Shown here: one piece after another, positions 4,794-15,794 of the stretch
Layout: every line of letters starts with the position of its first letter
Position numbering within the stretch: position 1 is the first letter of the stretch
Origin: an uncultured Candidatus Saccharibacteria bacterium
GTDB lineage: Bacteria > Patescibacteriota > Minisyncoccia > Phycocordibacterales > PALSA-1337
Assembly (NCBI GenBank): GCA_964646515.1
Contig: CAZYES010000002.1
Span: forward strand, 1-61,347
DNA length: 61,347 nt
Reading direction: 5' to 3'
Notes under the pieces: model-generated
The model's database searches: none
What the model saw: only the letters and a program-made list of their open reading frames with translations
Told to the model about the DNA's origin: nothing
Position numbers and translations under genes: made by a program

Positions 4794-6962
4794 TTAATGA
4801 GTCGAGTACCACGCTCTAGCCGCGTCAAACATTGACGCGGTCAAATTGTTTACAGACCAAAGGTCAACACCACTTAGACCCGCCCTCAGAACATCTAGGT
4901 TCACCGACCCCGTACTTTGATTATAGACTTTCTCATACCACGAATGGAGTTCACTTGTGCCACTACTTACCACGCAGCTAGGAACACGCCCTAGTATTTG
5001 CTGGAAAATCTGAATGATTTGTTGTTTTGTTTGATACTCTATACCAGACACCATCCCCTGTTTAACAGCGTTAATATCACCATAACTATTACTCCAGTAG
5101 TCCCAACCTTGTGAATCTGGTTCGCGGCACTGCAAATCTAGATAAAGCTGTCTGACTTGATCACGACTGACTCCAGTTACACCGCCAAACTGCACATATT
5201 GCTGTCCTCCGGCACCGATGGTTTCCACATAAATTTTGTACTGATTGCTACTAGTTACCAAACCTGAAGGTACTGTCCAGTAAATTCCATTCTCCCCCAC
5301 ACCAACAGCCCTTATAGTACTAATCCCCAAGACATTGATCCATGTCATTCCTTGAAGTTCATATAGGGAAACTCTGGTCACATCTTTTGTGTTTGTCTCG
5401 CTCCATTTTATGTAATATGTGTTTCCTTTTTGAAGATTGGTTGTCCCAATACCATTCAAAGAAACCGTCACGGCATCAATGGTAGGGTTCGTGGTAACAG
5501 ATCCTACGCTAACTGTCGCACTCGTCTCTGCGGTCTGGCCACTTGCATTCCTAACAGTAAACGTCGGCGTATAAGTGCCTGACTGATAATATGAATGAGT
5601 AAATGTGGCATTCTGTACAAACGAAGCCGTGGTTGGGGCCTGATTCGTACAAGTGTATCCGGTAGGACAATTGAAATCATCGCCCCAATTTACCGAGTAA
5701 CTCAAGCTACTATTCTGTGGATCATACGCATTAACAGTCCATGTTCCTTGTTGATTGACATTGAGCTGAGTTGGAGCGGTCACACCAGTAATTACAGGGG
5801 ATTGGCTGGTGCTAGCTGGGTAGTAAAACTGAAGTGCGTTACTCCAGGTGTCACCATAACCGACCTGAATATCATAAATACTCGTGTCAGCAGGTAACGA
5901 CGGCATATAAAACATAATCTGTGTTGCGGAAGATTGGTTTGGAATGATACTTACCCTGAACGCTGTTGCGGAAGATTGGTTTGGAATGACACTTGTCTCG
6001 AACCCCTTACCTGAAACTCTCACAAAATTACCCTTCTGAAAGTTGCCACCGTTTATCGTAACGAATGTGCCCGAAGTGCCGAAACTTGGATTGAGGGATG
6101 AAATATAAGGGCCATTCTTTCTGTCTACTACGATAGAAAAAGATCCAGAATACACCTTCTCTTCTGTCGTTCTATCATTAACTACCGTATTCTTGTATAT
6201 CGCGATCCGAATCTGACCAGTTACATAGGAGGGTGGTATCCATGAATAACGACACACTCCTTTACCATAACCAATGCAACCAGCTTTAGCTTGTGATAAT
6301 CCGGAAGCTATGACGCCTCCTTTTTCCGGTATATTTGGAAGCTCCCATTGAATATTGAATGTGTCGCTACCGCTCCACATTCCACTCCAGGTAATCGGGA
6401 CTTTTGTGCCTTCCATGTATACATCACCTTGTTTGGGAGATATTACAGTCATTGATCCCGGAACCGTACCCGGAACGCAAGACGAATTGACCTTTGTCCT
6501 GGTTAGAGGTCCAAAGAAACCTGTCGCAGGAATACCTACGCTGGATTGATACCCCTTCAAGGCTAAGTATGTTGAATTACCAAAATATCCTTTGGCACTA
6601 TCAAAGCCAACGGTTAAATCACTTATAGTGAAACCTTGAGCAACCAAAAATGTCTGGAGTGCCGCCACATCCGCCCCAACAGATCCTAGTTGTAGGTTAG
6701 CCGAAAAATTGTAGCAAGATTGGGTGGAAGTTGAAATGGGTATTGGTACAGGTGTCGGTGAGGGACTAATTGGTGTGGGCGTGCACACAAATCCTGAAGG
6801 ACAACCAGCTGGTTGTACTGGGATAGGTGTACAAGTATAACCAACAGGACAAACAACCGGTGTTGTCGCTGTCTGTGCATTGGCATATTCTGGTATATTG
6901 ATAACGACCGACAAAGCAAATATCGTTAGTGTAATCGCGAACGAAAATATGATTTTTTTCAT
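4794..6962 (-). CDS. secreted multidomain surface protein (signal peptide, Cys-rich CPxGYTCTP motifs, PG-binding-like, IPT/PKD-like repeats, DUF4214-like C-terminus)
   Basis: Signal peptide MKKIIFSFAITLTIFALSVV...ANA. PG_binding-type segment GSVGADVAALQTFLVAQGF...GYFGNSTYLALKGYQ. PKD-like segment WGDD...FTHSYYQSGTYTPTFTVRNASGQ. Confidence 0.7.
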   Translation of the reverse strand: MKKIIFSFAITLTIFALSVVINIPEYANAQTATTPVVCPVGYTCTPIPVQPAGCPSGFVCTPTPISPSPTPVPIPISTSTQSCYNFSANLQLGSVGADVAALQTFLVAQGFTISDLTVGFDSAKGYFGNSTYLALKGYQSSVGIPATGFFGPLTRTKVNSSCVPGTVPGSMTVISPKQGDVYMEGTKVPITWSGMWSGSDTFNIQWELPNIPEKGGVIASGLSQAKAGCIGYGKGVCRYSWIPPSYVTGQIRIAIYKNTVVNDRTTEEKVYSGSFSIVVDRKNGPYISSLNPSFGTSGTFVTINGGNFQKGNFVRVSGKGFETSVIPNQSSATAFRVSIIPNQSSATQIMFYMPSLPADTSIYDIQVGYGDTWSNALQFYYPASTSQSPVITGVTAPTQLNVNQQGTWTVNAYDPQNSSLSYSVNWGDDFNCPTGYTCTNQAPTTASFVQNATFTHSYYQSGTYTPTFTVRNASGQTAETSATVSVGSVTTNPTIDAVTVSLNGIGTTNLQKGNTYYIKWSETNTKDVTRVSLYELQGMTWINVLGISTIRAVGVGENGIYWTVPSGLVTSSNQYKIYVETIGAGGQQYVQFGGVTGVSRDQVRQLYLDLQCREPDSQGWDYWSNSYGDINAVKQGMVSGIEYQTKQQIIQIFQQILGRVPSCVVSSGTSELHSWYEKVYNQSTGSVNLDVLRAGLSGVDLWSVNNLTASMFDAARAWYSTH

Positions 6963-7100
6963 ATAATTAAAAGTAACTAGTAATGTGAGACTCGTAATAA
7001 AACAACAAAATTGAAATGGATAGTTTCAATTCCATAAGAGTATTATTCCACATACACATACACACACAAGCACGCAGTGGGGATAGTCATTATGATGTTT

Positions 7101-7175
7101 TGGTGCCCCCACCAGGAGTCGAACCTGGACCACGAACTTCGGAGGCTCGTGTTCTATCCATTAAACTATGGGAGC
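7101..7175 (-). tRNA. tRNA-Arg (anticodon CCG), CCA encoded
   Basis: The minus strand reads GCTCCCA TA GTTT-AATGGATA-GAAC A CGAGC CTCCGAA GTTCG TGGT CCAGG TTCGACT CCTGG TGGGGGC A CCA. Confidence 0.9.
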
Positions 7176-7334
7176 TTCGCATCGCCCTTATACTATGCGT
7201 CAATTAAGATCTCATTACAACATGATAATGTTAGCACAATAAAAACAATTACTATTAACCGAGAAATAAACCAACCATGCATACTTAATTCCCCATTTTA
7301 GTTTTATTAAAAACCGCCATATATGTGCATATTA

Positions 7335-7346
7335 CCCCCCCCCCCC
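7335..7346 (+). repeat. C12 homopolymer abutting a TTGACA box
   Basis: The sequence attaCCCCCCCCCCCCgcctaTTGACAagagc is read directly, about 45 nt upstream of ORF 7391. Confidence 0.9.
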
Positions 7347-7390
7347 GCCTATTGACAAGAGCATACATTTCGTGCTAACATATAAAACAG

Positions 7391-7621
7391 ATGAATGCTT
7401 TGAATTCCTTGTTTGTCGCAATCGTGGTAATCATGATTATGTCCTTTGGTACAGGGCTAATTCTTGGAGGACCCGAGAAAGCGACGAAGATCCTTACGTG
7501 GGAGCTCAAACAGCTCACCAAATTTGGCCGATGGGTACTGAAACATTTTTTTCAGACCATGTCGGATCTCTTCAGGTATCTTGCAAAAGCATGCGGGCCA
7601 CAAAAGAAGAAGACACCCTAA
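7391..7621 (+). CDS. hypothetical small membrane protein
   Basis: 76-aa ORF with an N-terminal TM helix (LFVAIVVIMIMSFGTGLILGG), followed by a strong hairpin. Preferred over the overlapping ORF 7372..7767. Confidence 0.4.
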   Translation: MNALNSLFVAIVVIMIMSFGTGLILGGPEKATKILTWELKQLTKFGRWVLKHFFQTMSDLFRYLAKACGPQKKKTP

Positions 7622-7628
7622 AACTACA

Positions 7629-7654
7629 GGCGAGCAGTTTCAAAACTGCTCGCC
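7629..7654. terminator. bidirectional hairpin between convergent genes
   Basis: GGCGAGCAGTT TCAA AACTGCTCGCC, an 11-bp perfect stem. Confidence 0.6.
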
Positions 7655-7768
7655 TTAACCTTTATTATTGTGCGCAGTTAGATACTTTACTTGAACTCTT
7701 TGATATTATCACAAAGACCTCGATACGTTTTTGGTATATACTTATTTGTAATTATGTCAAAAAATAAA

Positions 7769-8119
7769 TTACTGTGGGTCCTTACCGACTTGAGCAAGCC
7801 ACAACTTAAATGGTTCAGCTTTCGGAGATGGAATAGATTGGATAATGCGTAAAATACCCCGCAAATCAGCACAGCTCATCTTCTGTCGACCTCCTTTTGT
7901 CATTATGTCAAGGGTATGTACAATTTGTATCCACCCTTGACTAAGTTGCTCGTCGCGTTCTCTCATCCTTTGAACGTACTGTTTTGCATCATTCGACTCA
8001 ATAAGCGCTAACACTATATCTTCCACTACAAAATACCACCGCTCTTTGTGCCATGCTCGACGAATTTCGTGCGATTCGAAAAGTGCAATTGATTTTGATT
8101 CCTGTTCCTTCTTTTCCAT
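7769..8119 (-). CDS. phage-type Bro-N/KilA-N-like DNA-binding domain protein, probably C-terminally short
   Basis: IRRAWHKERWYFVVEDIVLAL...RIIQSIPSPKAEPFKLWLAQVG resembles the N-terminal module of prophage antirepressor-like proteins. This family call comes from memory of the motif, not from a search. Confidence 0.45.
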   Translation of the reverse strand: MEKKEQESKSIALFESHEIRRAWHKERWYFVVEDIVLALIESNDAKQYVQRMRERDEQLSQGWIQIVHTLDIMTKGGRQKMSCADLRGILRIIQSIPSPKAEPFKLWLAQVGKDPQ

Positions 8120-8199
8120 GCCACAATTTTCTCACTCCCAAAAGAAAAAACAATATTGACTACTATAAATATCAGTGCGGTATCACGAATAAATTTCTG

Positions 8200-8373
8200 G
8201 TGCGCGGGAGAGGACTCGGCTTCGCCTCTCGGCCGACCAGTCGTCCTCGGGCTAGCCACCGGCTCGCGGCTCGGCTTGCTAGCCTCGCACGCTGCGCCGT
8301 TCTCGTCCCTCCTTGCGTCACAATGATGCTCCACTCGGAGGCATAACATGCCTCCTCGTGGATCATTGTGCGC
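8200..8373. repeat. left 174-bp direct repeat (19-nt tRNA-Leu 3'-end copy plus 149-nt GC-rich module X plus GTGCGC)
   Basis: Compared base by base with 13688-13861 and found identical, at an offset of 5488 bp. Confidence 0.95.
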
Positions 8374-8417
8374 CGTCTGGAACGTTATTAGAACGGAGTT
8401 AAGTCTCGCAAGTTCAC

Positions 8418-9725
8418 CTATCTGTTATAAATAGCTTTCTCTGATCGTGCTTCAACTTCCTTCTTATATTCTCTTCGTGGCTTTTTCTTTTCCGCATCCA
8501 TTGCAAGCACGAATTCACGCTTCTTATCGGGTGAAAACTTACTAATCGTGCCTACCATTTCTTGCATCTGCTCGGGAGAAAGTGGATCTATCAACTCAGA
8601 AAAAGCGAGAGCTTGTGCTGCTGTTCTCACATCACCAGCATCTAAAGCAGCCAAACCGACGCCTTTTAATACCCGAGTACTTTCCATCGGATAATCATGA
8701 AAATCTAAAGCCCTATTTATGGCACCTTCCTTTTTTCTGTAGTCAAATACATTATTGACCCTTTCAGTCAGACCACGAATGAGTTCGTCGGGTTTTTCAA
8801 TTTTTTGATTCTCTTGAGTGACGTTAAAGCCGCCATTTTTACCTTTTTGCCGAAGCCCCTGACCATCTTTCAAAGCCTCTCTGTCTCTCCTCATCAGGTC
8901 TGCGAGCTTGTTCGGATCGTTGAGCTCTGCTATCTGATTTTTAAGATATTCAATGCGACGAGATGTCTCACCTCTCTTATAGGTTAAATAATCTTCTTTT
9001 TGTTTTGGTGTCCTTATAGAATCATTGGTATACTCGCCACTTGTAATGATTAGTTCCTCATTTTTAAGGGCAATTTCTTCTCTATCAATAGTCACCTGTA
9101 GAACACCTTCAACTGACCTTTTGTACAAATCAGGGTTTCCTGAGATAACAGCATAAGCTTCTTTGCCAGTGTCAATATCTGACGTCGCGATAAGTTTTTC
9201 TGCGGCCTTATTCAGTTCTGCCATTTGTTTTTCGCGCTCAACCTTTTCCTTATCTATCGGTTTAATGACACCCCCTTCCATCGTAAAACCTTTTGATTTG
9301 AATTCTTCATGAAAACGAGAGTTTTCCGCGCCCAAGGCTTGAAATTCTGGAGTAGATGTCCATGCGTCTCCAAATTTCTTATGACCTTCTTCATATTTAG
9401 CTTTCAACTCCGCATGTTTTTGTTGCAATTCAGCCAATACTGGGTCTTCATTTTTTGGACCAGTTGTCTCGCTCTCAGCAAGACCTTGAATATCTGTTGA
9501 ACTGGCAGCAGTTGATTCAACTCTCACCTCCTCCTTGCTGTCAACTTTAATTTCCTCTTGAAGACCTTTAAGCAAATCTTCCATATTCGCCGGTGTTGCT
9601 TCACTAGTTGGTTCAAGTATTTCAGGAGACGAAGTATTCCTTTTGGCTTCGTCTTCTTGACGGGCTTTTTCTAATAATTGATCCAGGCTTGGAGTTGATG
9701 AACTTTGTGGATTTTCTATGCTCAT
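8418..9725 (-). CDS. hypothetical acidic coiled-coil protein (element cargo)
   Basis: The ORF track begins at a TTG (9761). The first ATG (9725) gives MSIENPQSS... No recognisable domain. Confidence 0.5.
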   Translation of the reverse strand: MSIENPQSSSTPSLDQLLEKARQEDEAKRNTSSPEILEPTSEATPANMEDLLKGLQEEIKVDSKEEVRVESTAASSTDIQGLAESETTGPKNEDPVLAELQQKHAELKAKYEEGHKKFGDAWTSTPEFQALGAENSRFHEEFKSKGFTMEGGVIKPIDKEKVEREKQMAELNKAAEKLIATSDIDTGKEAYAVISGNPDLYKRSVEGVLQVTIDREEIALKNEELIITSGEYTNDSIRTPKQKEDYLTYKRGETSRRIEYLKNQIAELNDPNKLADLMRRDREALKDGQGLRQKGKNGGFNVTQENQKIEKPDELIRGLTERVNNVFDYRKKEGAINRALDFHDYPMESTRVLKGVGLAALDAGDVRTAAQALAFSELIDPLSPEQMQEMVGTISKFSPDKKREFVLAMDAEKKKPRREYKKEVEARSEKAIYNR

Positions 9726-9831
9726 AGAATTTATGTTAAAAATTGATAATTGTTTGAACAAGATCGATATGATTTGACTGACATAATAATACCACGTCTT
9801 CCGATAAAAGTGGCAGTCGGTTTTTGATCTT

Positions 9832-10133
9832 CGCCCCGCCCGTATCGGCTTTGGAGGGTAGGCGGTGCGCGAGCCGCTTTTGAGATGAGAACGCGTCTAC
9901 TTCCGCCCGTCACCACGAAACCTATTCGCGCCTAGCTCCTGTTGGTGCTGCGTAGCGCACCCCTATTGCGATCAGCAATTGGGGAAATGCGCGAAGCAGT
10001 ACGAACAGGAGCGTAAGGCGCGCCACATACCCTCTTAGGGCGGAAGTGGGCGCGTTCGTACTCTCGCATGTCACACGCTCCCGAAAAAGCGGCCGCGCAC
10101 GGCCTGCCCGGAAAAGCCGTTTGGGGCGGGGCG
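9832..10133. other. ~300-nt GC-rich, multiply nested stem structure (candidate single-strand origin or structured RNA)
   Basis: Nested perfect helices: 9832-9841/10124-10133 (10 bp), 9846-9852/10113-10119 (7), 9900-9908/10038-10046 (9), 9927-9932/10017-10022 (6), 9935-9943/10004-10012 (9), plus two terminal hairpins at about 9944-9961 and 9960-9984. Line 10081-10140 is 72% G+C. Confidence 0.65.
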
Positions 10134-10174
10134 CCACAGACGCAATCAATATTCATTGGTGTTAAACTATATGA

Positions 10175-11017
10175 ATGGATCTCCTCATAGCTGAACTTAA
10201 CCACAAATATTCAGAATTTTTAACTGCCATCGAAAGACACAGCCTCTGTAGGACTTCCAGAGCTGTATATGAATACTTTGATCTTGTTCAAGGACAGAAA
10301 ACCATACAGAAAATACTGGAAACTGACAGGCAAGAAATTGCTACTCGTAAGGCCATTGTAAACTCTGGTACCAGTTCAACCCAGGATAGTCGAGACGAAA
10401 TCGTGAGACGAATCGAAAGGAATTCGCTCACATATAGCCATGATTTAATTTACAACAAAATGTATGCGCCCATGAAGGCATACAAGGAATCTACCGATCA
10501 CAATGATGAGAAGGTACTGACCGGCATGTCTTTATTGTTTCAAAACGAATCTATTTCTGGAAAACTGATGGGTACTTGGGATCAATTCAAATTATACTGC
10601 GCACTGGATGACTTAGTTATTTGGATGGAGAGAATCCACGCGACTCTCGTAAAAAAGTTGCTTGAAGTAGAGAAACCAGAACCTGTGATTGCTTTTGATG
10701 CGCCGAACAAAATTAAGATCGTTATTGATGACCGCAAAGGTATTTACCAGGCTGACAAAGAACAGAATGCTTATGGTATTGAGAGAGACAGCAACAGAAT
10801 GAAACTGATCGAGCACCTCATTTCAAAAGATAACTGTGGCATCGCAGAGTTAGAAGAAATTACGGGTCAAGCGAGAAACGTCACCATAAAATCAATAGCG
10901 AAAATTAACGAGCTATTTAGAGAATATTTACATCTTGTTGACGATCTGATTCTTAGCTTGAAGACAGGTGGCTATTCGCTCAACAAGGACGTTTTCGACA
11001 TTATCGTGAAGCCGTAA
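10175..11017 (+). CDS. hypothetical protein with a possible C-terminal winged-helix/HTH tail (element cargo)
   Basis: 280-aa ORF with an ATG start. The C-terminal CGIAELEEITGQARNVTIKSIAKINELF looks HTH-like. Followed by a terminator. Confidence 0.5.
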   Translation: MDLLIAELNHKYSEFLTAIERHSLCRTSRAVYEYFDLVQGQKTIQKILETDRQEIATRKAIVNSGTSSTQDSRDEIVRRIERNSLTYSHDLIYNKMYAPMKAYKESTDHNDEKVLTGMSLLFQNESISGKLMGTWDQFKLYCALDDLVIWMERIHATLVKKLLEVEKPEPVIAFDAPNKIKIVIDDRKGIYQADKEQNAYGIERDSNRMKLIEHLISKDNCGIAELEEITGQARNVTIKSIAKINELFREYLHLVDDLILSLKTGGYSLNKDVFDIIVKP

Positions 11018-11047
11018 CCTTTAGGTGTTGTTGGTAAGTCCAGCCTA

Positions 11048-11073
11048 GGCGTCTAAAATACGCCCTCTTTTTT
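11048..11073 (+). terminator. intrinsic terminator
   Basis: GGCGT ctaaaat ACGCC followed by CTCTTTTTT. Confidence 0.55.
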
Positions 11074-11122
11074 GCATGAAGGTCATCTAACGGTTCATAT
11101 TGAAAATTGCGACCATTATCTC

Positions 11123-11326
11123 ATGGCACACCAATTCAGCCATGAGCTAACACAACGAGCACAGACATACTTCGGGGAAAAATCCGGTCGAGATATTTCA
11201 CATGAAGAAGCCAATGAGTACATGAACAGTCTGGCTAGCTTGTACGAATCGTTTATGGAATTGGCGGTGGCCGGCGGGACTGCTTCCGATGCTTTAGCGC
11301 GGAGCAGTCCGCCGGCAGTGCTTTGA
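11123..11326 (+). CDS. hypothetical small protein (element cargo)
   Basis: The track ORF starts at TTG 11072. The in-frame ATG at 11123 gives MAHQFSHELTQRAQTYF... The 3' end overlaps the conserved-loop hairpin. Confidence 0.4.
   Translation: MAHQFSHELTQRAQTYFGEKSGRDISHEEANEYMNSLASLYESFMELAVAGGTASDALARSSPPAVL
11270..11316 (+). repeat. conserved-loop hairpin, copy b (loop ATGCTTTAGCG)
   Basis: GCCGGC-G-GGACTGC-T-TCCG [ATGCTTTAGCG] CGGA-GCAGTCC-GCCGGC, about 17 bp with two single-nt bulges. Confidence 0.6.
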
Positions 11327-11366
11327 TGACTTGCTAGAGACCTAACCTAAGACAATACAGAAAACA

Positions 11367-12191
11367 ATGGGCTACAACAAAATCGTCACCTACGGAAACA
11401 TAATTGAAACATTCACATATGCAAGAGATCCCAATATTCCTCCAAGAACACAAAGAAGACATTCGTGCCATGCTGGAATTCCTGGTGCTTCAGATGATGC
11501 TGGCTCTGTCGATGAACGAGAGGCTTTCGAAGGCAAGCGCAAGGACAACGCAGACCGCGCTTCAATGGTTTTTCGACAACTCGTCCTCGCTAACCTTACA
11601 GGAACTGAATATCCTCTACTCCTTACTGCGACGTACCGGGACAACCAAACGGACTTACGCCAAGGCTACAGAGATTTCGGCGCTTTCATCCAGGCTATGC
11701 GCTATCGATTTGGAAAAGAATGGCGGTATATTGCAGTCCCCGAATTTCAAAAACGTGGAGCTGTTCATTTCCACGCTCTCATCTGGGGATTACCCACAAG
11801 TGTGTTTGAAGAAGAGCGATCTACCCGATTGGTTGCGGGACTCTGGAAACATGGATTTGTTTACCTCAAAATGACCGATGGGAATGAAAAGCTATCGTCA
11901 TATCTGACCAAATACATGGCTAAATCATTTGTAGACAGAAGACTCATGAATCAGAAAGCATATGTCTGCTCAAGAAATCTGAAGCGGCCTCAAGTCGTTG
12001 GCCACATTTCAAAATTCAGCATTGATACTTACCTAGAAGAATGTGGTGTGACTGATCCGGAAATCGACAACTCATACGAAACGCGTTGGCTTGGAACAGC
12101 ACGCCACCGCATTTACAAGCTCTCCACAGAAAATCCACCGAAACAAAAATTGTCCGAAGAAAATATTGAGAGTACAATTCCGTTAACTTAA
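11367..12191 (+). CDS. HUH-superfamily rolling-circle replication initiator (Rep)
   Basis: Motif I LLLTATY, motif II (HUH) AVHFHALIWG and motif III YLTKYMAKS, with two Tyr spaced YxxKY, occur in the canonical order. Confidence 0.75.
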   Translation: MGYNKIVTYGNIIETFTYARDPNIPPRTQRRHSCHAGIPGASDDAGSVDEREAFEGKRKDNADRASMVFRQLVLANLTGTEYPLLLTATYRDNQTDLRQGYRDFGAFIQAMRYRFGKEWRYIAVPEFQKRGAVHFHALIWGLPTSVFEEERSTRLVAGLWKHGFVYLKMTDGNEKLSSYLTKYMAKSFVDRRLMNQKAYVCSRNLKRPQVVGHISKFSIDTYLEECGVTDPEIDNSYETRWLGTARHRIYKLSTENPPKQKLSEENIESTIPLT

Positions 12192-12233: not shown

Positions 12234-13814
12234 ATGAAATACATTTTGTACTGTAGAAAATCCACTGATACTGAAGACAAACAGGTGCTTTCCCTTGAAT
12301 CACAGGAGAAGGAGCTTACCGATCTCGCCAAAGACCGGAATCTTGAAATCGTCCAAATTCTCACTGAAAAGAAATCTGCCAAAGCTCCCGGCCGCCCTGT
12401 ATTTAACGAAATGATGACTGCCATTTCTGCCGGCAAAGCCGACGCTATTCTCTGCTGGAAAATTGATCGCCTGACGCGTAACCCCGTTGATGGAGGACAG
12501 ATCCAATGGCTACTTCAAAACGGCAATATCAAGTGTATCCAGACTTCAGAGAAAACATATTTGCCTAGCGACAATGTGTTGTTAATGAGCATTGAGCAAG
12601 CTATGGCTAACCAATACATTCGCGATTTGAGCACGAATGTAAAGCGTGGAAATAGAGCCAAACTTGAACACGGCGGCTGGCCTAATCATGCACCGTTTGG
12701 CTATCTTAACGACAAAGCTAGCAATTCAATCATCTTGGACAAGAAACATTCTAAGTATGTGCCACGCATATTTGATCTCTACATTACCGGCGCTTACAGC
12801 CTGCAACAGATTTCAGATATTCTCTTCAAAGAGGGTCTTCGCACCTGCTCCGGGGACAAGGTACGCAAGGGAAAGATTCATAAAGTCCTGTGCAATAAAT
12901 TCTATATCGGCCTCATGGAAAGAGACGGCAAAATCTATCAAGGCAATCACGAAACATTGATCTCAAAATCCACCTTCGACAAAGCCCAAGACATTCTCTG
13001 TGGCCGCATCCATTCACGAAAACGCAATCATTTCTATTCAGCCCGAGGATTCCTGCAATGCGCCTCCTGCGGCTGTAATTTAACCTGTGACACCAAGAAA
13101 GGATTCAAGTATTACTACTGCACCAACGGCAAGGGCAATTGTGAACAGCATAAAAAATACATGAGATCTGAATTCATTGATGAACTGCTGGCCAAAATGT
13201 TCCTTAATCTCAAATTCGACGAGCAACTCATTCAAATGTCCGCTGATGCTTACAAAGAATCCAACCAGAGCAAGATTGATTACACACAATCGGCTACTGA
13301 TGCCCTCACAAGCGAGCTACAAGCCCTCACAAAGAAAGAATCTGTCTTAACCGACGGATATGCTTCTGAAGTCATTAAACCTGATATGTACAAGCAGAAG
13401 ATGTTGGAAATTGAAAACAAGAGAGCCGAGCTACAAACACAGCTCACAGAAATTCAGTCAAAGGGACCAGTCACTCAAGTTACTTTCGAACAGATCAGGA
13501 ATATTTTTATGGACGGCAACAGGGCCTCGGAAAAGTATATGGCCTCCGGAGATGAAGCAAAACGAAATATGCTGTCAAAGCTACTTTCGAACGCAACCAT
13601 CAAAAATCGAGAAGTGGCGCAGTACCAATTCAAAAGCCCGTATCAGGTGCTCGCGGAAACACCCAAAAACATTGATTTTGAAAAATTGTGCGCGGGAGAG
13701 GACTCGGCTTCGCCTCTCGGCCGACCAGTCGTCCTCGGGCTAGCCACCGGCTCGCGGCTCGGCTTGCTAGCCTCGCACGCTGCGCCGTTCTCGTCCCTCC
13801 TTGCGTCACAATGA
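12234..13814 (+). CDS. large serine recombinase (integrase)
   Basis: N-terminal resolvase-type catalytic region YCRKSTDTEDKQVLSLESQ...ILCWKIDRLTRN; recombinase domain; zinc ribbon CASCGCNL...YYYCTNGKGNC; coiled-coil C-terminus. The last ~42 codons and the stop lie inside the right 174-bp repeat. Confidence 0.85.
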   Translation: MKYILYCRKSTDTEDKQVLSLESQEKELTDLAKDRNLEIVQILTEKKSAKAPGRPVFNEMMTAISAGKADAILCWKIDRLTRNPVDGGQIQWLLQNGNIKCIQTSEKTYLPSDNVLLMSIEQAMANQYIRDLSTNVKRGNRAKLEHGGWPNHAPFGYLNDKASNSIILDKKHSKYVPRIFDLYITGAYSLQQISDILFKEGLRTCSGDKVRKGKIHKVLCNKFYIGLMERDGKIYQGNHETLISKSTFDKAQDILCGRIHSRKRNHFYSARGFLQCASCGCNLTCDTKKGFKYYYCTNGKGNCEQHKKYMRSEFIDELLAKMFLNLKFDEQLIQMSADAYKESNQSKIDYTQSATDALTSELQALTKKESVLTDGYASEVIKPDMYKQKMLEIENKRAELQTQLTEIQSKGPVTQVTFEQIRNIFMDGNRASEKYMASGDEAKRNMLSKLLSNATIKNREVAQYQFKSPYQVLAETPKNIDFEKLCAGEDSASPLGRPVVLGLATGSRLGLLASHAAPFSSLLASQ

Positions 13815-13861
13815 TGCTCCACTCGGAGGCATAACATGCCTCCTCGTGGATCATTGTGCGC
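13688..13861. repeat. right 174-bp direct repeat, fused to the tRNA-Leu 3' end
   Basis: Identical to 8200-8373. Its last 6 nt are the first 6 nt (on the plus strand) of the genuine tRNA 3' end. Confidence 0.95.
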
Positions 13862-13940
13862 GGGAGAGGACTCGAACCTCCATGCCCTAATGGGCGCTAC
13901 CACCTCAAGGTAGTGCGTCTACCAATTTCGCCACCCGCGC
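13857..13940 (-). tRNA. tRNA-Leu (anticodon GAG), long variable arm
   Basis: The minus strand reads GCGCGGG TG GCG-AAATTGGTAGA-CGC A CTACC TTGAGGT GGTAG CGCCCATTAGGGCATG GAGG TTCGAGT CCTC T CCCGCGC A; 84 nt. Confidence 0.9.
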
Positions 13941-14560: not shown

Positions 14561-15373
14561 TCACTGTTTGAGTTGTTCTAAAGCATACTCGAAATCGGCT
14601 GGCAGGGGCGCTTCAACCGCAATGCGTTTACCTTTTGTCATATTCTCAAATTCAATAAAACACGAATGGAGCGCAAGCCTTTGGAAACCCAACACCATTG
14701 GTCTTTTTGGCGCATAGAGAATATCTCCAACAACCGGGTGATTCACGGCATTCAGATGAACACGTATCTGGTGCGTCCTCCCCGTCTTTGGCTGGACCTC
14801 AAGATAAGAAAACTTTTCCATTTTCATTTTCCCTCCAAATGTATCCCCAAGCTTTCCATGTTCATAAGAAGAGTAATCGGGTATATCAATTTTGCCACTT
14901 ACAATCTTGGTCCAATAAGTCTCGGCTTCCCTCAGTTCACCTCTCGCGCCCCTCTGTGCAGACCACTTGCGAAAATCATTTCCACTTCTGCCAATCGGTC
15001 TTATAATAGTGCCAAATTCTTCATCCATCTCTCCCCAAACAAAAGCCTTATATTTCTTCGTAATAGTTCTATCCTTGAATTGTTTCTTCAGATGAGCATG
15101 CCCGTTGGCTGTCTTCGCAATAATTAACGCCCCAGATGTCTCCCGATCTAGACGATGAACGATACCCGCCCGATTAACCGGTTTGCCACTAGCGTCAGTC
15201 ATCGGATCTCCAACATTCTCTGCCTCTGGAAAATTATTAACAATCCATTCAGTCAAGAACGGCCCTTTCGCCCTACCATCGGAATGCACCATGAGACCGG
15301 CTGGCTTGTTAACAACAACACAATCCGTATCTTCATATAAGATTTCTACTTCTATACTCTCTTTATTGCTCAT
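14561..15373 (-). CDS. rluD: RluA/RluD-family pseudouridine synthase
   Basis: HRLDRETSGALIIAK catalytic motif. The true start is taken as ATG 15373 (MSNKESIEVE), because the track ORF up to 15742 runs through tRNA-Val and the GC-rich module. Confidence 0.85.
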   Translation of the reverse strand: MSNKESIEVEILYEDTDCVVVNKPAGLMVHSDGRAKGPFLTEWIVNNFPEAENVGDPMTDASGKPVNRAGIVHRLDRETSGALIIAKTANGHAHLKKQFKDRTITKKYKAFVWGEMDEEFGTIIRPIGRSGNDFRKWSAQRGARGELREAETYWTKIVSGKIDIPDYSSYEHGKLGDTFGGKMKMEKFSYLEVQPKTGRTHQIRVHLNAVNHPVVGDILYAPKRPMVLGFQRLALHSCFIEFENMTKGKRIAVEAPLPADFEYALEQLKQ

Positions 15374-15459
15374 AGCATGAATATACGCTAATCTATGGCA
15401 AAGGTGAAGTGCCATTGAAATCTTCAATCCTTGCAACCAGTTGCCCACAAAATTAACAT

Positions 15460-15532
15460 GCGCGATTAGCTCAGTTGGTAGAGCAGTGCTTTTACACAGC
15501 AAAGGTCGGGGGTTCGAATCCCTCATCGCGCA
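15460..15532 (+). tRNA. tRNA-Val (anticodon TAC)
   Basis: GCGCGAT TA GCTC-AGTTGGTA-GAGC A GTGCT TTTACAC AGCAA AGGTC GGGGG TTCGAAT CCCTC ATCGCGC A. Confidence 0.9.
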
Positions 15533-15780
15533 CATTTGATCTGTACCCCCTAGTGAGTTTGTAAGCAACAGCAAGTCGCCTACGCGACTTGCGCGAGGGA
15601 TTCGAACAGCGAGCGATCTCCGAGCCAGCGGGCGAGGAGCGCGAGCTGGTGCCCAGGAAATGTGAGCGGGTAGCGAACATTTCCGAGGGCGAATCCTCGA
15701 TCGCGCACTGCTTCGCTCGCTATCGCGGGCTACGCAGTGCAAGCACCAGTCCTGCGTAGCTTTAGCGGAGCAGGACTAAT
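15533..15780 (+). repeat. GC-rich module V, 3' of tRNA-Val, containing a degenerate second copy of the tRNA 3' end
   Basis: GAATCCTCGATCGCGCAC (15691-15708) compares with the tRNA's GAATCCCTCATCGCGCAC (15516-15533), 175 nt upstream. An inverted T-arm copy TGCGCGAGGGATTCGAAC lies at 15590-15607. Hairpins lie at 15571-15592, 15704-15740 and 15748-15777. Confidence 0.7.
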
Positions 15781-15794
15781 TCGTAAGCGTCTGA

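Follow-up and report, generated by a model that had tools for sequence, protein, structure and literature searches.

A GC-rich, covarying rod-like hairpin as a candidate single-strand origin of integrative rolling-circle elements in Patescibacteria

Background

Single-strand origins (sso's; for example ssoA, ssoU, ssoT, ssoW or ssoL) and the minus-strand origins of the Ff/M13 phages are non-coding, heavily paired segments of replicons that also carry an HUH Rep initiator and a double-strand origin (dso). The sso's are meaningful only on the displaced strand, usually lie upstream of the dso and are patchily distributed among related replicons (PMC5703833, PMC4595007). A segment that resembles them in these respects is present in a 61,347-nt stretch of DNA (the window; GenBank assembly GCA_964646515.1, contig CAZYES010000002.1) from an uncultured Candidatus Saccharibacteria bacterium. 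This segment, a GC-rich hairpin of ~305 nt at positions 9832 to 10133 (hereafter the rod), belongs to a ~5.5-kb integrative element that encodes a Rep and a serine recombinase. The rod differs from the known sso's in that it is about twice as long as ssoA, forms a single 110-bp rod instead of a cluster of hairpins, is strongly GC-enriched and has neither sequence similarity to them nor a conserved terminal-loop element; its host belongs to the ultra-small bacteria of the candidate phyla radiation (CPR)/Patescibacteria.

GEBRO motifs (GC-Enriched, Between Replication Origins), found in Streptococcus plasmids such as pUA140, are likewise GC-enriched and covarying, measure 223-349 nt and occupy the non-coding region of rolling-circle plasmids; their authors could not choose between RNA and single-stranded DNA (ssDNA) as the folded species (Weinberg et al. 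2017, PMC5737381). The rod is a simple rod from a different host phylum and, whereas GEBRO lies between an sso and a dso, no other sso candidate exists in its element. The Frpo/ssi ssDNA promoters of conjugative leading regions (PMC11541004) share with the rod a long ssDNA hairpin upstream of a gene for which the single strand is the template, and a rod of this kind might serve both for priming DNA synthesis and for early transcription. In contrast to Frpo/ssi, the rod contains no conserved -35, -10 or UP mimic and belongs to a rolling-circle integrative plasmid, not to a conjugative leading region. The 6S RNA resembles the rod in its closing stem, large central bubble, apical stem-loop and core of about 170 nt; the rod, however, has no Rfam match at E <= 10, resides on a mobile element in one clade only and is known here from DNA sequence alone.

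The analysis described below favours, with a probability of about one half (0.5), the reading that the rod is a single-strand (lagging-strand) origin of a new type, belonging to a family of ~5.5-kb integrative rolling-circle replicons of CPR/Patescibacteria.

Structure of the rod

The rod lies in a 449-nt spacer between a minus-strand open reading frame (ORF; 8418-9725/9761) and a plus-strand ORF (10175-11017). Its minimum-free-energy fold is a single continuous, fully nested rod, with helices running from 9832-9841/10124-10133 inward to an apical loop at 9970-9974, and comprises the following parts:

9832..10133, + strand: GC-rich rod-like hairpin, ~305 nt, about 110 bp; the feature in question and candidate single-strand origin
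9832-9841/10124-10133: helix of 10 bp
9846-9852/10113-10119: helix of 7 bp
9856-9863/10102-10109: helix of 8 bp
9865-9871/10094-10100: helix of 7 bp
9873-9881/10085-10093: helix of 9 bp
9889-9908/10038-10057: central helix of 20 bp
9927-9933/10016-10022: helix of 7 bp
9935-9943/10004-10012: helix of 9 bp
Innermost helices of 7, 5, 4 and 5 bp, ending at the apical loop 9970-9974
9909..9926, + strand: large central internal loop, 5' side, with the semi-conserved motif (C/T)CAC(G/A)(G/A)A (alignments A3 and A4)
10023..10037, + strand: central internal loop, 3' side, with the motif CCACATAC immediately 3' of the conserved helix GGCGCG (alignments A3 and A4)
10058..10084, + strand: asymmetric, poorly conserved insertion in the 3' arm; forms a weak side hairpin in the window and is replaced in group C homologues by another small hairpin
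9888..10059, + strand: conserved rod core (20-bp helix, central internal loop, apical helices), common to the most distant homologues and to a second copy, rod b, in locus L008

An initial annotation, made by a model from the sequence of the window, had described nested helices in this divergent spacer, together with two terminal hairpins. The nested helices are real and make up the rod at 9832-10133, but it has one apical hairpin only, the insertion at 10058-10084 forming merely a weak side hairpin. The G+C content is 63.2% for the whole rod and 71.7% at 10081-10140, in agreement with the 72% given earlier; the enrichment thus stands, whereas the background, guessed at 38-40% for the genome, measures 41.8% in the window. 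Folding of both strands against shuffled controls, which had been proposed as a check, placed each far below the shuffles with RNA and DNA parameters alike. With RNA parameters the + strand reaches -202.2 kcal/mol (z -14.3; dinucleotide shuffles, -128.8 +/- 5.1) and the - strand -180.5 kcal/mol (z -9.6); the DNA parameters give -110.9 for the + strand (z -10.6) and -99.5 for the - strand (z -8.4). The internal loops are purine-rich (GGA/GGA, GAA, GUAA), the apical loop varies among homologues, and 29% of the unpaired positions are A.

Conservation, covariation and strand preference

Searches with nhmmer and a covariance model identified ~20 distinct homologous loci with a GC-rich segment directly upstream of the gene for p280, the 280-aa protein encoded next to the rod, in constant orientation. 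These include loci in which p280 is just 35-45% identical to that of the window. The same rod was obtained in 20 of 20 homologues folded individually, at a divergence to about 60-70% identity.

Covariation was measured on a plain sequence-only MAFFT alignment (A3), with the structure taken from per-sequence folds and with pairing partners slid by 1-3 columns as controls. Standard pairs occupy 83.3% of cells, compared with 36-50% in the slid controls, and the covariation score is 0.322, compared with 0.07-0.10; none of 500 shuffles reached it. The covariation of helices across homologous elements that the initial annotation had looked to as a test is present, with compensated changes on both sides in 62 of 102 pairs (16-21 in slid controls). 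Entire helices are exchanged between subgroups, for example GCTCCTGTTGG/CGAACAGGAGC versus GCGCATATCGG/CGGATATGCGC versus GCACACATCGG/CGGATGTGTGC. Because compensatory change is so extensive and whole helices are swapped between subgroups, the base pairing of the rod is, on the evidence of this alignment, under selection.

A covariance model of the rod core (R1, 173 positions) scores 169.9 bits in the window, 141-152 bits in L019-L021 and 104.9 bits at L008 2201-2388(-). Applied to the window and 38 loci (361 kb), it detects a single copy in each element, at the orthologous site, and rod b as the one additional copy.

In all 20 homologues the + strand of the rod folds more stably with either parameter set; its advantage over the - strand is 8.5-30.6 kcal/mol (RNA parameters) or 4-19 kcal/mol (DNA parameters). 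Among consensus pairs, G.T/T.G occurs in 109 cells, while A.C/C.A (64 cells) stays at the background of about 32 per mismatch class. This uniform stability bias, together with the enrichment of G.T and the background level of A.C, points to the + strand as the functional single strand. G.U accounts for 3-8% of rod pairs in the homologues, which is low for a large structured RNA.

Replication genes and the double-strand origin

Three features downstream of the rod place it on a rolling-circle replicon:

11270..11316, + strand: dso hairpin, GC-rich, with the conserved loop GCTTTAGC; same position in 14 of the 16 loci listed
11327..11336, + strand: putative Rep nick-site motif TGACTTGCTA, similar to CTTG|ATA of pC194/phiX174
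11367..12191, + strand: HUH rolling-circle Rep (PF23343 REP_ORF2-G2P, 2.8e-21; phrog_3419 rolling-circle initiation, 1.3e-28)

That the element encodes an HUH Rep, as the initial annotation had it, is borne out by the PF23343 and phrog_3419 matches. The dso hairpin overlaps the 3' end of a small ORF (11072/11123-11326). The motif TGACTTG(C/A)TA is found on the + strand, 30-40 nt before the rep ATG, in the window and 27 loci; it is single in 25 loci, and a second copy lies away from rep in L004 and L032. Variants of the motif are ACTTGATAAAG in L006 and L040 and GACTTGCTAATAGCCTAAC in L001. CTTG|ATA is the nick site of pC194 and phiX174; the dso loop sequence CTTT|A also resembles the f1 gene II nick site, so that the nick may lie at either position. 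The origin sequence of pC194 is TCTTGATAATAAGGGTAAC (PMC7072734). Because the pC194-like motif lies on the + strand, Rep would nick this strand at TGACTTG(C/A)TA and the + strand would be displaced as ssDNA.

With Rep and the dso on the + strand in 27 loci, the strand on which the rod folds best would be the one displaced by rolling-circle replication. The function of sso's is strictly orientation-dependent (PMC5703833), and plasmid sso's usually lie upstream of the dso (PMC4595007), as does the rod. Since the rod is 1.2 kb upstream of the putative nick site, it would be exposed late in a replication round. It is also the only large non-coding segment of the element. The replicon thus combines an HUH rolling-circle initiator and a dso with a non-coding segment of extensive, conserved intrastrand pairing, and the fold of this segment is favoured on the displaced strand if motif similarity correctly identifies the nicked one.

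Predicted promoters around the rod

Two predicted promoters flank the rod:

10160..10177, + strand: p280 promoter, predicted from the extended -10 TGtTAAACT (10160-10168), 6 nt before the ATG at 10175
9786..9795, - strand: predicted extended -10 GTGGTATTAT of the divergent cargo gene, firing away from the rod

On the p280 side, TGnTA(A/G)A(A/C)T ends exactly 6 nt before the ATG in 17 of 17 group A-C loci, and the -35-like element is the 3' tail of the rod itself (cAGACg in the window, cAGACA given for group A-C loci). Because the extended -10 sits 6 nt from the ATG, the p280 mRNA is probably leaderless and starts after the rod. The same conserved element, located after the rod, led to rejection of the rod as a 5' untranslated region or riboswitch of p280. 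On the cargo side, the reverse complement of ATA(A/T)TACCA(C/T) occurs 30-60 nt upstream of the rod in 9 of 17 group A-C loci. Both conserved promoters would fire outward, and neither would transcribe the rod.

Across the family, no conserved promoter points into the rod, the sequence TG(A/G)TAAAAG being common to four loci, and no intrinsic terminator was found 3' of the rod. A search of both strands of the 20 rods for a conserved -35/-10 mimic in the stem gave none; the best cases were 8-of-12 matches in group C.

Extended -10 promoters of the form TGnTAnnnT are also situated 6-10 nt from start codons more generally, at window positions 10160-10177 and 9786-9795 and at about 1738-1760 and about 2485-2520 of L008. 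This spacing implies that mRNAs of CPR elements may be leaderless or near-leaderless, without a Shine-Dalgarno sequence.

Elements without the rod and a second copy

More distant relatives that have the same backbone of Rep, dso and recombinase (L024, L037/38, L009 and L010) lack the rod, as does L023. The gap between the cargo gene and p280 is only 45 nt in L024. An equivalent of the rod elsewhere in such relatives was not found: L037 has short GC hairpins only, and L024 has no GC-rich segment except a coding stretch at about 1600-2400. Because relatives share the same backbone without the rod, the rod is best viewed as an accessory module. A patchy distribution of this kind is compatible with an sso, because sso's form separate, host-limited classes at variable positions (PMC5703833); in ICEBs1, second-strand synthesis can finish without sso1 (PMC4595007).

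Rod b (L008 2201-2388 (-), equivalent to L042 about 5200-5390) is a shorter copy of the core that scores 105 bits, folds with a z of -7.9 and has compensated helices of its own. It occupies a divergent spacer that has a second serine recombinase (32% identical) on one side and a 256-aa gene on the other, and is co-oriented with the downstream operon. The island continues with genes of defence type, encoding an EMARD_N protein, an N6/N4 methyltransferase and an SNF2 helicase, and the main element of L008 is integrated directly downstream of it. The GC-rich segment next to rod b (L008 1740-2200) shows no significant structure (z -0.9). Within this 450-nt unstructured stretch, between rod b and the 256-aa gene, a GC-rich direct repeat of ~29 nt (cggcattcctcccc(g/a)(a/g)acccctcctgccgc) occurs twice, at L008 1822-1850 and 2018-2046.

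Coding potential and database comparisons

At least one stop codon interrupts each of the six frames of the rod, and no frame is consistently open across the 20 homologues. The two ORFs reported in the spacer, 9922..10149 and 9932..10204 (minus strand), are therefore artefacts, as the initial annotation had supposed; a protein-coding role was rejected on the same grounds, the frames proposed by gene callers also differing between loci.

A cmscan search of the whole window against Rfam 15 at gathering thresholds returned six tRNAs only and left the rod unmatched. At E <= 10, the region 7900-10400 gave merely chance matches of microRNA type and no 6S RNA. With no covariance-model match to any Rfam family, known RNAs such as GEBRO (for which Rfam presumably holds a model), 6S RNA and other plasmid- or phage-associated motifs were set aside. 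Searches with blastn (word size 11) of 72,556 plasmid and 50,697 phage records gave no match to the rod at E <= 0.01; a two-block DNA pattern had no match in IMG/VR, and protein-based scans of viral contigs were likewise negative.

Several other identities were considered and rejected. The rod is not the Rep nick site, since TGACTTGMTA is absent from it and present upstream of rep, nor is it an attachment (att) site of the recombinase, since the element junctions are the 174-nt repeats at 8200-8373 and 13688-13861, >1.4 kb from the rod. A miniature inverted-repeat transposable element (MITE) or a REP-like palindrome is at odds with a single copy at an orthologous site and no dispersed copies in 361 kb. 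For retron msr/msd, TnpB or IscB omega RNA and IS110 bridge RNA, considered because a recombinase and structured DNA occur together, no gene encoding a reverse transcriptase, TnpB, IscB or a DEDD recombinase is present.

Interpretation

If the rod is a single-strand origin, the element would first be excised by its serine recombinase. Rep would then nick the + strand at the dso, at the hairpin 11270-11316 and TGACTTG|CTA (11327-11336), and leading-strand synthesis would peel this strand off. The late-displaced 305-nt segment would snap into the GC-rich rod with its conserved internal loops, and the partly duplex rod would recruit host priming by RNA polymerase, as in ssoA, ssoU and M13, or by primase or a primosome. 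Extension of the primer leftwards would copy the + strand into duplex DNA. The analysis demonstrates the structure with its conservation, covariation and strand bias, the lack of coding capacity, and the setting and orientation relative to Rep and the dso, whereas we infer three elements, namely the nick site, ssDNA instead of RNA as the folded species, and the priming step. The single-strand origin proposed in the initial annotation gains from the Rep, the dso, the strand bias, the position upstream of the dso and the outward promoters. It is held back by the lack of a match to any known sso class, by rod b without a visible Rep and by the difficulty of separating ssDNA from RNA by sequence.

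Several observations weigh against this reading. No Rep or dso motif was found near rod b in the visible 5.4 kb of its island, which counts against a strictly Rep-linked role; either this island also passes through a single-stranded stage, or the role of the rod is independent of Rep. No circular or excised form was found, the ~25 element copies recovered being all integrated and two extra look-ups giving the same result. In the plasmid and phage records searched with blastn (72,556 + 50,697), the rod showed no similarity to ssoA, U, T, W or L, and the candidate is, by this comparison, unrelated in sequence to the known sso classes. No Frpo/ssi-like -35/-10 mimic is conserved in the stems of the 20 rods, and the apical loop is not conserved, hence there is no element comparable to CS-6. 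The CS-6 hexamer is the terminal-loop element of ssoA and RS_B a conserved sso region, neither of which was pattern-scanned by its exact consensus. The rod (305 nt, 63% G+C) exceeds ssoA (about 160 nt) both in size and in GC enrichment, and an enrichment of this kind in an AT-rich genome is also a classic sign of structured RNA. Motifs acting as ssDNA and as RNA are not reliably separable by bioinformatics (Weinberg et al., PMC5737381). A single-stranded stage of an island has a precedent in ICEBs1, which uses its sso after conjugative entry (PMC4595007), and Patescibacteria are reported to have a conjugation-type type IV secretion system (T4SS; bioRxiv 10.1101/2025.01.22.634366).

The rod could instead be a structured non-coding RNA in its own right, about 300 nt long, with a dedicated promoter immediately upstream that drives transcription in the + direction and with a function in trans or in cis, an explanation that we consider possible but distinctly less probable than a single-strand origin. 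Such an RNA might bind RNA polymerase as a 6S-like rod with a central bubble, might regulate p280, Rep or the recombinase, or might have an anti-defence role. Strong covariation is, like GC enrichment, typical of structured RNAs, the + strand bias suits RNA equally, the internal loops are purine-rich and G.U is tolerated at many positions (for example UA:11/UG:8 and GC:10/AU:5/GU:5); the low overall share of G.U pairs, the mere 29% A at unpaired positions, the variable apical loop and the lack of GNRA or UNCG tetraloops nevertheless fit an RNA poorly. Likewise, TG(A/G)TAAAAG in four loci would set a predicted start 1-11 nt before the rod, but a family-wide promoter and an intrinsic terminator at the 3' end are missing, the conserved flanking promoters face away from the rod, and Rfam holds no match even at E <= 10, 6S included. 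Because rod b sits in a Rep-less defence island, in a divergent spacer and co-oriented with its downstream operon as in the main elements, a Rep-independent role is conceivable. The rod would then tentatively represent a new class of large (about 300 nt), rod-shaped non-coding RNA on serine-recombinase elements of CPR/Patescibacteria, serving as a 6S-like decoy or as an RNA cofactor or regulator of the element life cycle; close relatives of the element, however, lack the rod. The more specific proposal of the initial annotation, an RNA that assists the recombinase or regulates Rep, found no specific support.

Two DNA-based alternatives are less probable still. In the first, which is improbable, the + strand, folded after rolling-circle replication or transfer to a new cell, would mimic a duplex promoter of Frpo/ssi type, and leftward transcription from it by RNA polymerase would prime the complement and express the cargo before the element becomes double-stranded. 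The rod is a long intergenic hairpin upstream of a gene, as were the Frpo candidates searched for in regulatory regions of 50-350 bp (PMC11541004), and the - strand encodes the cargo gene, which directly adjoins the rod on its 5' side; the displaced + strand would accordingly be the template of this gene. Surface or pilus-type cargo also agrees with early expression of this kind, which would account for rod b in a non-replicative, possibly transferable island. Against these points, the 3' arm contains no conserved -35/-10 pair, only weak 8-of-12 matches in one subgroup, the plasmid collection shows no similarity to known Frpo/ssi sequences, and transfer of the elements as ssDNA is hypothetical. 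Slightly more doubtful is a role in duplex DNA, whether as a cruciform, insulator or p280 platform between divergent promoters or as a MITE-like palindrome with arms kept by gene conversion. The rod does always lie between two divergent promoters beside the gene of a DNA-binding protein, its arms are near Watson-Crick complementary with few wobble pairs, and the fold of either strand is significantly better than that of shuffles; such a feature should, however, be perfectly symmetrical, and conserved internal loops, bulges and a 27-nt one-sided insertion are found instead. Strand asymmetry in 20 of 20 homologues, with G.T enriched and A.C not, is equally hard to reconcile with duplex DNA; compensatory change between diverged arms argues for selection on pairing, and the copy number and location of the rod are un-MITE-like.

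The host element and its surroundings

The ~5.5-kb element is inserted at the 3' end of tRNA-Leu(GAG) and is flanked by a perfect 174-nt direct repeat. In addition to the features given above, it contains:

8200..8373, no strand: left copy of the 174-nt direct repeat, element boundary
8418..9761, - strand: variable cargo gene, 447 aa; highly charged protein with no Pfam or PHROG match
10175..11017, + strand: p280, 280 aa, with a helical N-terminal domain and a C-terminal winged helix; always directly downstream of the rod
12234..13814, + strand: large serine recombinase (PF00239, PF07508, PF13408)
13688..13861, no strand: right copy of the 174-nt direct repeat, abutting tRNA-Leu(GAG) 13856-13940(-)

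The element order is cargo gene(-), rod, p280, a small gene of about 66-84 aa, HUH Rep and large serine recombinase, and the order from rod to recombinase is kept in all loci long enough to show it. Elsewhere the cargo slot is filled by unrelated, mostly surface or pilus-type genes (L026/L027, L029, L033, L036), which encode T4SS_pilin-like proteins of 402-469 aa, an N_methyl+Laminin_G_3 protein of 487 aa, an RDD protein of 527 aa and a 1166-aa protein. The small elements may carry surface proteins from one episymbiotic bacterium to another.

Homologues of p280 number 32, and their carriers are metagenome-assembled genomes of CPR/Patescibacteria (Saccharibacteria, Paceibacterota, Taylorbacteria, Nomurabacteria). 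An AlphaFold2 model of p280 (pLDDT 83) gave Foldseek matches, with weak E-values, to winged-helix domains of the CadC/ToxR/OmpR type, so that the model points to a putative DNA-binding regulator; the structure search returned a generic winged-helix domain only, with no link to priming or RNA binding. A hairpin and T-run resembling an intrinsic terminator follow p280 at about 11045-11075. The last ~35 codons of the recombinase ORF, which read into the GC-rich terminal repeat (about 13707-13814), are probably not real; in most homologues the alignment stops at residue ~491-497.

The 22-nt 3' end of tRNA-Leu(GAG) is present three times (8197-8218, 13685-13706 and 13853-13874), and each of the first two copies is followed by the same 146-nt GC-rich unit with a 50-nt hairpin (ACAATGATGCTCCACTCGGAGGCATAACATGCCTCCTCGTGGATCATTGT). 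A perfect repeat of 174 nt far exceeds what a serine recombinase needs for crossover. Because the tRNA end occurs in three copies and the repeat is of this length, the arrangement suggests possible tandem or accretive integration at a regenerated att site.

To the left of the element, a 722-aa PG_binding_1 + PKD protein is encoded at 4794-6962 (-) of the window, and the cargo slot of the rod-less relative L037/L038 holds a similar PG_binding_1 protein of 754 aa (L037 3801-6065 (-)). Positions 7100-8200, with a tRNA-Arg and a Bro-N protein, may be left over from an adjacent element. Immediately downstream of tRNA-Val(TAC), the GC-rich stretch 15534-15790 (about 64%) contains diverged copies of the 3' end of this tRNA, for example GAGGGCGAATCCTCGATCGCGCAC, which resemble remnant att sites of a further integrated element; ORF 14561-15742(-) crosses this stretch and the tRNA-Val, and its true start is probably further in.

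Significance

To our knowledge, the mobile elements of CPR/Patescibacteria have received little experimental study. The present analysis defines in these bacteria a family of ~5.5-kb integrative rolling-circle elements with a recognisable leading-strand origin, and the strongly covarying 305-nt structure is the best candidate for their lagging-strand origin. The alignment and covariance model make the choice between ssDNA and RNA directly testable. If the rod proved to be an RNA instead, it would constitute a new class of large structured RNA tied to mobile elements. If it is indeed an sso, it would represent a sixth-or-later, phylum-specific type. Because known sso's limit host range and some Saccharibacteria are now genetically manipulable, such an origin would also be a potential part for replicating vectors in CPR/Saccharibacteria.

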